Shown here: positions 39,628-44,469 of the stretch, piece by piece
Numbering within the stretch: position 1 is the stretch's first letter
How the letters are laid out: every line of letters starts with the position of its first letter
Source of the DNA: Squalus acanthias
Taxonomy: Eukaryota
Assembly (NCBI GenBank): GCA_030390025.1
Contig: CM059432.1
Location: forward strand, 65,784,001 to 65,848,000
Direction: 5' to 3'
Length of the DNA: 64,000 bases
Notes under the pieces: generated by a model
What the model saw: only the letters and a program-made list of their open reading frames with translations
What the model was told of the DNA's origin: nothing
The model's database searches: none
Translations under genes and position numbers: made by a program

Positions 39628-40352
39628 GTGTAAAAAGGAAAAGATTAGCAAGAGTAAATGTGGGGCCCTTACAGGCTGAGACAGGAGAAATTATAATGGG
39701 GAATAAGGAAATGGCAGAGAAATTAAACAAATACTTTGTGTCTGTCTTCAAGGAAGAAGACGCAAAAAACTTCCCGGAAATAGTGGAGAACCAAGGCTCT
39801 AGCAAGAATGAGGAACTGAAAGAAATTAGTATTCGTAAAAAAATAGTACTGGAGAAATTAATGGGACTGAAAGCCGATAAATCCCCTGGACCTGATGGCC
39901 TACATCCTAGGGTTTTGAAAGAGGTGGCTATAGAGATAGTGGATGCATTGGTTGTCATTTTCCAAAATTCCATAGATTCTAGAACGGTTCCCACAGATTG
40001 GAAGGTAGCAAATGTAACCCCACTATTTAAGAAAGGGAGAGAGAAAACAGAGAACTACAGTCCAGTTAGCCTGACATCAATAGCAGGGAAAATGCTTGAA
40101 TTGATTATTAAAGATGTGGTAACAGGGCACTTAGAAAATAATAATAGGATTGGGCAGAGTCAACATGGATTTATGAAAGGGAAATCGTGTTTGACAAATC
40201 TGTTTTTGAGGTTGTAACTAGATAACTAGATAAGGGGGATGTGGTGTATTTGGATTTTCAGAAGGCATTCGATAAGGTGCCACACAAGAGGTTATTAAAC
40301 AAAATTAGGGCTCATGGTCAGCAGGTCAGGCAGCATCTGTGAAGAGAGAAAC

Positions 40353-40393
40353 AGAGTTAACGTTTCAGGTCAATGACTTTTCGTCAGCACTGG
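40353..40393 (-). ncRNA. Minimal hammerhead motif in inverted Penelope arm
   Basis: Minus strand CAGTG-CTGACGA-AAAGTCATTGACCT-GAAA-CGTT-AACT. Confidence 0.6.
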
Positions 40394-40925
40394 AAATAAG
40401 CAGGAAATGGAACAGATTTTTAAGCAAGAGTAGGAGCTGGGAAAGTGGGGAGGGGATGAAAGAACAAAAGGGAAGGTCTGTGATAGGATAGAAGGCAGGA
40501 GAGGTTAAGAGACATTAAGAGATATTCAAGGAAAAAGGAGATGGTAATGGGACAGGTTAAGAAACAAAAGATGGCTCTAGATGAAGTGTAAATTGCGCTG
40601 GCAGAATGAAAGACAGCTGCCATGTGGAAGAGAAGAAAAGAAAACACAAACAAAAAAAAAGTGTGGGAAAAAAAATATCTATGATAGGGGCCGAGGTTAT
40701 GATCTGAAATTGTTGAACTCTATGTTGAGTCCAGAAGGCTGTAAAGTGCCTAATCGAAAGATGAGGTGCTGTTCCTCGAGCTTACGTTGAGCTTCAGTGG
40801 AACAATGTAAGAGGCCTATGATGGTGAGGTCTGAGTGGGAGTGGAGCGGAGAATTAAAGTGACAGGCGACTGGAAGCTCGGGGTCCCCCTTACGGACTGA
40901 ACGGAGGTGTTCCGCAAAGCGATAT

Positions 40926-42026
40926 GTGGAACATTCTTTGTTCCAGTCCTACTCAGGTCCCCTCCCTCACCTCTTTTCCCAGTACATTGATGACTGTATC
41001 GGTGCCGTTTCCTGCTCTCGCCCTGAACAAGAAAATTTCATTCACTTTGCTTCCAATTTCCACCCTTCCCTCACCTTCACGTGGTCCATCTCCGACTCTT
41101 CCCTTCCCTTCCTCGACTTCTCCATCTCCATCTTTGGGGATAGGTTATTGACAAACATTCACTACAAGCCCACTGACTCCCACAGCTACCTGGACTACAC
41201 TTCCTCCCACCCTGCTTCCTGTAAGGACTCTATTCCATTCTTCCAGTTTCTCCGTCTCTGCCGCATCTGCTCTGACGATGCCACTTTCCATACCAATGCT
41301 TCCGACATGTCTTCCTTTTTCCTCAACCGAGGATTCCCCTCTACTGTGGTTGACACGGCCCTTGACCGTGTCCATTCTATCTCCCACACTTCTGCCCTCG
41401 CCCCTGCCCCTCCCTCCCGGAACCACGATAGGGTTCCCCTTGTCCTCACCTTTCACCCCACCAGCCTCCACATTCAACGGATCATCCTCCGCCATTTCCG
41501 CCACCTCCAGCATGATCCCACCACCAAACACATCTTCCCTTCACCTCCCCTTTCAGCATTCCGAAGGGACCGGTCCCTCCGCAACACCCTGGTCCACTCC
41601 TCTATCACCCCCAACACCCCTTCCCCTTCGCTCGGCACCTTCCCGTGCAAGCGCAGGATATGTAACACATGCCCTTATACCTCCCCCCTTCCCACTGTCC
41701 AGGGCCTCAAACACCCCTTCCAGGTGAAACAGCGATTTACTTGTACTTCTTGCAATTTAGTATACTGTATTCGCTGCTCACGATGCGGTCTCCTCTACAT
41801 TGGGGAGACCAAACGCAGATTGGGTGACTGCTTTGCGGAACACCTCCGTTCAGTCCGTATGGGGGACCCCGAGCTTCCGGTCGCCTGTCACTTTAATTCT
41901 CCGCTACACTCCCACTCAGACCTCACCGTCCTCGGCCTCTTACATTGTTCCACTGAAGCTCAACGTAAGCTTGAGGAACAGCACCTCATCTTTCGATTAG
42001 GCACTTTACAACCTTCTGGACTCAAC
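40926..42026 (+). pseudogene. Penelope RT C-terminal half plus GIY-YIG endonuclease (5'-truncated, end disrupted by MITE)
   Basis: YIDD RT motif; CKRRICNTC zinc-finger-like linker; LVYCIRCSRCGLLYIGETKRRL..EH GIY-YIG; ends GLN where the MITE begins. Confidence 0.92.
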
Positions 42027-42768
42027 GGCCCAAAAATTAGTGCCGCTACGCGAGAGTACGCACTGTGTACTCTCGCGTATTCTGTCTCCAATTGCCGGTT
42101 TTCTGCATGCACTGCGCATGCGCTGAAAACCGGCACTTGGTGAATTCAAAAGGGGGCGGTTCCTAGGTGAACCGCGTGCGCGCTACAGGCTGCGCGCACG
42201 CAGTGCACTTAGTGCTTTGAACGCGCAGGTAAGCATGGAACATTTTAGACATAAAGAAAGGAGGCGTAAGACCCTCTTTTAACAAGGTAAGTAGTTAATT
42301 AAGTATTATTTTGAATTTTTTTTAACAGGTATATCTTTTTTAGAGACTTTAAAGACAGGTAAGTTTATTTTTATAACTTTTTAAAAGATTTTAAATTTTT
42401 TCAAAAATTTAATTTTTTGTTTAAAATGGTTAATTTATTTAACTATACTTATTTTATTAATGTGATGGTTTTTTTTAAAATGTAATTGAGGTTTAGCTGT
42501 TCTTTTGGGGGGGTATAGATTCATAGCTTTCACAGCACTTATGTGAAAGCTATGAATGAAAGATGGTGTGCTGCCATTGGCTCTAACTGAGTCACGTGAT
42601 CCCACAGCTCGCACGAATTAACTGCGCCTGTGGGATACGGAAGCCCTGCACAGCTGCTGTCCAGAACATCAAGTTCGTGCGAGCTCGGACTGAAAAAGCC
42701 AGCGCGCAGTGAGAGATCGCGGGGAAGCCTTACCCTCGCACGAAGGCTCCCTCACGAATTTTTGGGCC
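42027..42768 (-). mobile_element. Harbinger-like MITE, diverged family A member
   Basis: TIR GGCCCAAAAATT / AATTTTTGGGCC; TSD AAC confirmed by empty site in inverted arm; AT-rich core is reverse complement of that in copies 1 and 2. Confidence 0.92.
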
Positions 42769-42957
42769 AACATAGAGTTCAACAATTTCAGATCATAACC
42801 TCGGCCCCTATCATATATATATTTTTTTCCACATTTTTTTTTGTTTGTGTTTTCTTTTCTTCTCTCCCACATGGCAGCTGTCTTTCATTCTGCCAGCACA
42901 ATTTACACTTCATCTAGAGCCATCTTTTATTTCTTAACCTGTCCCATTACCATCTCT

Positions 42958-43183
42958 ACGATAGCAAAATACTGCGGATGCTGGAAATCCGAAATAACAA
43001 CAGAAAACGTTGGAAAAACTCAGCAGGCCAGGCAGCATCCGTGGAGAGAGAAACAGAGTTAACGTTTCAGGTCAAAGACCTTTCGTCAGACGAAGGTCTT
43101 CGACCTGAAACGTTAACTCGGTTTCTCTCTCCACGGATGCTGGCTGGCCTGCTGAGTTTTTCCAGCGTTTTCTGTTGTTATTT
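42958..43183. mobile_element. Palindromic (fold-back) Penelope-tail derivative
   Basis: ~95-bp inverted arms centred on 43088; 15-16-bp TSD (T)CCCATTACCATCTCT at 42942-42957 / 43183-43198. Confidence 0.9.
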
Positions 43184-43343
43184 CCCATTACCATCTCTTT
43201 TTGCCTTGAATATCTCTTAATGTCTCTTAACCTCTCCTGCCTTCTATCCTATCACAGACCTTCCCTTTTGTTCTTTCATCCCCTCCCCCCTTTCCCAGCT
43301 CCTACACTTGCTTAAAAATCTGTTCCATTTCCTGGTTTTTTCC

Positions 43344-43380
43344 AGTTCTGACGAAAGGTTATCGACCTGAAATGTTAACT
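43344..43380 (+). ncRNA. Minimal hammerhead motif in Penelope 3' tail
   Basis: AGTT-CTGACGA-a-AGGT(tatcg)ACCT-GAAA-TGTT-AACT; stem I AGTT/AACT, stem II AGGT/ACCT. Confidence 0.68.
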
Positions 43381-44469
43381 CTGTTTCTCTCTTCACAAAA
43401 GCTGCCTGGCCTGCTGAGTATCTCCAGCATTTTCTGTTTTTATTTCAGATTTCCAGCATCTGCAGTATTTTCTTTTTGTAATATATCCAAGTTTGCTGAT
43501 GATACAAAGCTGGGTGGGAATCTAAGTTGTGAGGAGGGTGCAAGGAGGCTTCAAGGGGATATAGACAGGCTAAGTGAGTGGGCGAGAACATGGCAAATGG
43601 AATATAATGTGGAGAATTGTGAAGTTATCCACTTTGGTAGGTAAAATAGAAAAGCAGCGTATTTTTTAAATGGTGAGAGATTGGGAAATGTTGGTGTTCA
43701 GAGGGACCTGGGTGTCCTTGTACATGAATCGCTTAAAGTTAACATGCAGGTACAGCAAGCAATTAGAAAGCAAATGGTATGTTGACTTTATTACAAGAGG
43801 ATTTGAGTATAAGAGTTAAGACGTCTTACTGCAATTATATAGGGCCGTGGTGAGACCACACCTGGAGTATTGTGTACAGTTTTGATCTCCTTACCTAAGG
43901 AAGGATGTACTTGCCATAGAGGGAGTGCAACAAAGGGTCACTAGACTGGTTCCTGGGATGGGGGGATTGTCCTATGAGGAGAGATTGAGTAGACTAGGCC
44001 TATATTTGCTAGAGTTTAGAAGAATGAAAGGTGATCACATTGAAACATACAAAATTCTTACAGGACTTGACAGGGTAGATGCAGGGAGGATGTTTCCCCT
44101 GGCTGGGGAGTCTAGAACCAGGGTTCACAGTCTCAGAATAAGGGGTCGGCCATTTAGGACTGAGATGAGGAGAAATTTCTTCACTCAGAGGGTGGTGAAT
44201 CTTTGGAATTCTCTACCCCAGAGGGCTGTCGAGGCTCAGTCGTTGAGTATATTCAAGACAGAGATTGATAGACTATTGAATATTAAGGGAATCAAGGGAT
44301 ATGGGGATAGTTCAGGAAAGTGGAGAAGAGGTAGAAGATCAGCCATGATCTGATTGAATGGCGGAGCAGCCTCGAGGGGCCGAATAGCCTACTCCTGCTA
44401 CTATTTCTTATGTTCCTATGTTCAGACTGCTGTACTGTTGAAGGTTTCGTCTTTCAGGTGAGACATTGG

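Follow-up and report, generated by a model that had tools for sequence, protein, structure and literature searches.

A ribozyme-centred palindrome in the Squalus acanthias genome, a likely by-product of insertion of a Penelope-like element

Introduction

Within a 64,000-bp stretch of Squalus acanthias DNA (hereafter the window), the letters of a hammerhead ribozyme lie at the axis of a short palindrome flanked by direct repeats. The locus raises the question whether such a palindrome is a mobile element in its own right or a product of some other element. The first-pass annotation, made from the sequence alone, proposed either a non-autonomous ribozyme-centred hairpin element mobilised in trans or a snap-back of reverse transcription at the RNA end defined by the ribozyme, and kept a one-off twin-priming product in reserve. 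Here we examine the insert, its parent family and its sister copies. The origin of the inverted repeats and of the one-sided tail in Penelope-like elements (PLEs) is stated to be open in PMC8557442 and is left unresolved in the available text of PMC11167929. Sister copies constrain the PLE insertion mechanism, and the value of the analysis lies there.

Sequence data and samples

The searched genome comprises 3.7 Gb. Positions in the element are numbered in the RNA sense from the C of the CTGA core (+1), located at window position 43089 on the minus strand; the T, T, G and A that precede it in parent copies are numbered 0, −1, −2 and −3, respectively. The genome contains 26,995 exact matches to a 30-nt arm motif and 5,973 matches to a 45-nt tail motif. 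The tail-picked sample consists of the first 100 of the latter, all from one contig. Ends were scored with a limit of about −60; 40 of the 100 copies extend past it, and their far ends are mostly unseen. The search with the junction yielded 1,446 candidates, and all 40 candidates that were scored span the junction. Twelve outward-facing pairs were picked by the arm motif; two of them are also present in the tail-picked sample. This set excludes L179 and L198, which face inward, and the interrupted L166.

Structure of the insert

The insert occupies positions 42958–43182 (225 bp) between direct repeats at 42942–42957 and 43183–43198, both on the plus strand and identical over 16 bp. One or two bases at the repeat edges, including the final base of the left copy, match the element too, hence the true stagger is 14–16 bp, in agreement with the 15–16-bp target-site duplication noted initially. 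The fold-back of about 225 bp was also located correctly: its centre TTCGTC-A-GACGAA occupies 43082–43094 with the A at 43088, and was probably formed by TCAGA microhomology with a central mismatch. The two inverted copies of about 95 bp described in the first-pass annotation are indeed present (42982–43082 and 43093–43193, 93% complementary), but the arms differ in length, the left measuring about 133 nt and the right about 97 nt; the left one is longer by about 33 nt. The long arm (42958–43089, minus strand) covers in the RNA sense the pLTR from +1 to about +133, including the one-sided tail. The unpaired part of about 33 nt (42958–42990, minus strand), placed between two putative priming sites, corresponds to the tail as defined in PMC8557442 and PMC11167929. 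The short arm (43089–43182, plus strand) covers +3 to about +98; it is tail-less and has one base deleted. The suggested check by RNA folding yields one long hairpin with the energy of −165.5 kcal/mol (z −25), and none of 200 shuffled sequences is equally stable.

The filled site aligns with the reverse complement of 40250–40800 with one clean gap. The single empty site lies in the host element's inverted arm (40537–40552, minus strand, bounds approximate), so the insert is a later insertion into another Penelope end, as had been claimed. The insert is a real minimal form of the known Penelope insertion with an inverted pLTR and a tail, and this form recurs in the genome.

The hammerhead motif

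The minus strand reads from 43089 CTGACGA-stem II-GAAACGTT-AACT. Its letters at 43057–43089 (CTGACGA, stem II, GAAA, CGTT, AACT) follow the minimal hammerhead layout of PMC4209133 without the 5' strand of helix I, and the identification is based on this layout together with the type I core letters (CUGANGA, GAAA, stem II, NUH site). The core had been described as intact on the minus strand, which holds for its letters; the ribozyme itself is incomplete, as TCGT from the opposite arm stands in place of the AGTT that forms the 5' strand of helix I in parent copies, and helix I is down to one pair. The plus-strand core reads CAGACGA, with the one change already reported. Rfam at the gathering threshold gave no matches across the window, and at E-values up to 10 it gave generic hairpin families alone, under their cut-offs, and no hammerhead.

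The motif shares with minimal hammerheads of metazoan PLEs (PMC4209133) the core letters, the extra base before stem II and the palindromic minimal helix III, and the short helix I of parent copies is also alike. It differs in lacking helix I on both strands, in having one core altered and in the closing pair of stem II, A-U instead of the usual G-C. According to the same paper, even complete minimal PLE hammerheads show no cleavage as monomers, and Schistosoma has oppositely oriented hammerhead pairs 100–700 bp apart. The motif of the insert is predicted to be inactive. The insert is likely a dead end, with helix I lost and the core predicted to be buried in the 95-bp hairpin, and is itself probably inert.

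The parent family

By sequence, the arms are the end of the pLTR of an abundant Penelope-like family, which supplies thousands of young copies with exact ends. The full layout is found in L191: a tail-less inverted arm, a pLTR, a frameshifted ORF and a pLTR with a tail; that is, the direct and inverted pLTRs with a one-sided 30–40-nt tail that characterize EN+ PLEs. The single ORF with reverse transcriptase followed by C-terminal GIY-YIG, also typical of EN+ PLEs, is represented by the 833-aa frame of L192 and the frameshifted ORF of L191; Pfam similarity to RVT_1 (E-value 7.7e-5) and GIY-YIG (3.8e-4) is weak, both being under the curated cut-offs; the N-terminal parts of the ORF have no match. 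At least three subfamilies, distinct in stem II, are present. In L051 (1390–1956) the ORF frame extends through the hammerhead and the tail, and the core CTGATGA of the second subfamily holds, by eye, an in-frame ATG, much as in the Anolis element. The human repeat UCON13 was considered as a possible Penelope palindrome but not confirmed as one: PMC5753468 in its available part classes it simply as Penelope.

Recurrence of the junction

The junction is not unique. Its exact 32-nt sequence was found at 54 places (100 strand matches), and 40 of 44 distinct junction loci examined have their own duplication of at least 8 bp (14–15 bp in 24 of the 44; the detected duplications span 8–18 bp). The composition of 43 duplications is 66% AT with no strong motif. 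The fold-back points cluster on the 5' half of the hammerhead, as the first-pass annotation anticipated.

Such recurrence would be expected from a non-autonomous palindromic element with a fixed centre, transcribed into a hairpin RNA that the Penelope protein mobilises in trans. On a hairpin template, two cDNAs would also anneal easily and could flip the central base, so that the balance of A and T at the centre (see below) is expected from such an element as well. We nevertheless consider it unlikely. The identical centre is found at 39 places in the second subfamily (73 matches), and neighbouring junctions are as common or commoner, occurring at 140, 43 and 14 places. For 33 of the 100 tail-picked copies an inverted partner lies in the fetched flank, and 23 of these are compact fold-backs with varied junctions; the exact centre is present in two of the 100, L109 and the interrupted L057. 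At +61, three junction copies and two non-junction copies carry the same variant, which points to more than one source lineage. Thus, instead of the one dominant structure with private variants expected of a non-autonomous master copy, the recurring centre looks like one of several microhomology outcomes.

In L033, L065, L081, L089 and L128 the junctions contain short insertions copied from nearby sequence, similar to the signature of end joining by polymerase theta.

Outer ends of the arms

Long arms end at about +128 to +137, and short arms mostly at +91 to +99. A long arm is paired with a short one in 43 of 44 and 14 of 15 junction-picked loci (57 of 59), two long arms in none of the 59. 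The two exceptions are the damaged copy L149 and L216 (1425–1616), a clean and perfect short–short palindrome whose duplication is 14 bp long and whose arms have one private change in common; because of the latter locus the rule is not absolute. The tail is present in none of the 33 partners of tail-picked arms, and the partner ends at +91 to +99 in 27 of these 33 pairs. The 12 outward-facing pairs of the arm-motif sample are long–short without exception. Each outer end also occurs in single-arm insertions with duplications (tail-less L172, L173 and L184, by eye; L236, L243 and L258). The two outer ends match the two start sites of reverse transcription flanking the tail of the Anolis element (PMC11167929), and their spacing matches the one-sided 30–40-bp tail (PMC8557442). 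Contigs of two other organisms have loose ends at about −4 to +7, +91 to +98 and +127, a weak hint that relatives may have the same boundaries.

In the samples and at window position 40318, short arms that do not end at +91 to +99 seem to gather near +64 to +70 and +78 to +81, which are possible minor start sites or results of microhomology trimming.

Two cDNAs or one folded back

Palindromic junctions of this kind have been explained by self-priming, in which one cDNA (or an antisense template, PMC3846280) folds back and the second arm is copied from the first. Seven variants common to both arms in the 44 junction loci and one in L216 agree with the published explanation. It predicts, however, that the second arm is a subset of the first with a random end, whereas the observed end is fixed in 27 of 33 pairs, and this end alone yields single-arm insertions. 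Among the 23 compact fold-backs, the short arm extends further 5' in 12, the long arm in eight, and the two are equal in three; in L031, L088 and L099 the tail-less arm exceeds the tailed one by hundreds of bases. Neither arm is thus contained in its partner. The latter three loci largely refute self-priming; deletions at the hairpin tip could mimic part of the pattern but not the fixed outer end. Self-priming thus appears very improbable here. A snap-back at the ribozyme-defined end, as suggested in the first-pass annotation, fares no better, since simple copying by folding back cannot give inner sequence absent from the long arm, as seen in 12 of 23 cases; moreover, the predicted cut site (after +29, between 43061 and 43060) is about 28 nt from the fold-back centre, and one end of 100 lies near it.

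The central base relative to the long arm is A in 30 cases and T in 29, as expected if two TCAGA ends anneal with an A:A mismatch. Of the 27 minor-allele sites, 25 are concordant between the arms (shuffle mean 0.21; 0 of 2000 shuffles), which indicates the same source element, though not provably one RNA, as concordance cannot separate one RNA from two RNAs of one source. Gene conversion between the arms is unlikely as a general source of their symmetry, given 58 asymmetric versus seven symmetric differences in the 44 junction loci.

Taken at the level of genomic end-points, the data argue that the insert, two short head-to-head copies of the ribozyme-bearing Penelope end, was probably formed afresh at the site, with both cut strands of the target priming reverse transcription. 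The twin-priming product held in reserve at the outset is thus the explanation that fits best, yet as a routine product rather than a one-off.

Inner ends at the hammerhead edge

The 5' edge of the hammerhead is A(−3), the first base of helix I. In the tail-picked sample 41 of 100 copies end within 18 nt around this edge. For the 60 long arms ending between −60 and +90, 41 ends fall in −5 to +12 versus 7.2 expected (p = 3e-24). The upstream edge is sharp, with 13 ends at −5 to −2 and two at −13 to −6. Genome-wide, the match of 682 copies starts at A(−3) with two non-native bases before it. The preceding base, where a cap-derived G would lie, counted by eye in the first 100 of these, is G in about 39, A in 46 and T in 15 copies, the count being confounded by microhomology. 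The edge fits the initiator consensus, YYANWYY, but resembles an initiator and a 3' splice site equally. A small second cluster of inner ends at about −25 to −32 is formed by L031, L073, L094, L097 and L129, and none was seen at −41 to −60.

We favour the reading that A(−3) corresponds to the 5' end of the transcript, as judged from the copied ends. Double-ended priming could also operate with cDNAs that stop for another reason, at folded or protein-bound RNA or as a consequence of splicing at CAG. All three subfamilies have a pyrimidine tract and CAG upstream of the edge; in D. virilis helix I marks the end of the intron (PMC4209133), with transcription beginning about 120 nt upstream (PMC4209133; PMC2377424); and 28 of the 41 clustered ends lie not at the edge but inside the fold, at −1 to +12. 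A stall, however, should sit on the other, 3' side of the fold (+30 to +33), where one end of 100 is found, and copies ending at −5 to −1 join the target or the partner arm directly, with no shared upstream exon sequence (17 cases, by eye). A stall or splicing as the cause of the stop is therefore, in our opinion, an unlikely alternative to a transcript start. In the RNA search, the matches of which are contigs, mostly presumed RNA from other organisms, with the best RNA share of 0.40, no GT..AG joint at the hammerhead edge was found among 15 listed of 38 joints in the four runs aligned.

Proposed mechanism

Under double-ended priming, the protein of the element would cut the target with a stagger of about 14–15 nt, leaving two 3' ends. 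Each end would prime at its own start site, one distal and one proximal, on RNA of the same source, and the 33 nt between the sites would become the one-sided tail. Both cDNAs would halt at or just short of the A of AGUU, likely the 5' end of the transcript. Their 3' ends would then be trimmed and joined on a few matching bases; here TCAGA would pair with TCAGA and the A:A mismatch would be repaired either way. The PLE protein of Anolis is predicted to be a dimer; in vitro it both cuts and extends the two strands, starting at the two sites bounding the tail (PMC11167929). Some palindromes may later have been re-mobilised.

A more general and more tentative proposal, which we would put somewhat below an even chance, is that PLEs integrate by a concerted double-ended reaction: a dimer would make the 14–15-nt stagger, each strand would receive one cDNA from its own start site on mRNA that begins at the first base of helix I, and the run-off cDNAs would meet there. 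If true, the tail, the inverted pLTR and the ribozyme-centred palindromes would have a common explanation. Double-ended priming of PLEs was not found proposed in the open-access literature searched, mostly by title and abstract opening. For the existing in vitro system, the copies of this family predict paired extension: the two strands of a single target molecule would each be extended, from different start sites.

Comparison with known elements

The layout of inverted pLTR, tail and duplication is already published. Insertions of EN+ PLEs such as Pen2a_Av (PMC3846280; PMC8557442) likewise have a head-to-head inverted pLTR, a 30–40-nt tail on one arm, a target duplication and a palindromic junction; the present insert retains just the terminal ~130 and ~95 nt and lacks an ORF, and duplications in the present family are mostly 14–15 bp versus 8–10 bp reported for rotifers. 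The self-priming explanation given for them (PMC3846280) does not fit our data. PAc, a Poseidon element of Anolis carolinensis (PMC11167929), is similar in having two start sites of reverse transcription about 100–150 nt downstream of the hammerhead, bounding the tail, and an ORF frame that passes through the hammerhead, and in neither element are ends seen at the ribozyme cut site. The PAc study reports no strand difference in the start site, whereas in the present family nearly every pair of arms combines the two sites; in its available sections the two strands of one target are not linked and inverted insertions are not discussed.

Two other classes were considered and rejected. Non-LTR retrozymes (bioRxiv 10.64898/2026.07.22.740005) are also non-coding, PLE-derived and hammerhead-bearing, but they are head-to-tail tandem units with complete ribozymes, unlike the single head-to-head pair with an incomplete ribozyme described here. 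A MITE or fold-back DNA transposon should have equal terminal inverted repeats and a duplication of fixed length, while the arms differ by about 33 nt and the duplications span 8–18 bp. In L1 twin priming, too, both target strands prime cDNA synthesis and the products are joined by microhomology, resulting in an inversion; there the second primer anneals at an internal position that varies, and the resulting arms are non-overlapping. In the present family the start sites are fixed 33 nt apart, and the same stretch is copied twice, which produces an inverted duplication.

The insert is thus likely a by-product of an abundant Penelope-type element rather than an independent ribozyme element. In the annotation of such genomes, ribozyme-centred palindromes should be treated as by-products and not as new ribozyme elements.

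Host element and neighbouring features

The host is an older and larger inverted Penelope insertion (40318–43480, plus strand) composed of a short inverted arm (40318–40920), the 3' part of the ORF (to 42026) and a pLTR with a tail (to about 43480); the hammerhead of this pLTR has its core at 43348 and an intact helix I. The host pLTR is interrupted at 42027–42767 by an unrelated insert of about 740 bp with short terminal inverted repeats and internal palindromes, which resembles a non-autonomous DNA transposon. Ends similar to those of the latter break Penelope arms in L034, L165 and L166. The host insertion has no target duplication at its flanks (40318 and 43480). Judging by their motifs, both flanks presumably represent pieces of one LINE reverse transcriptase from which a segment is missing, which suggests insertion with a target deletion.
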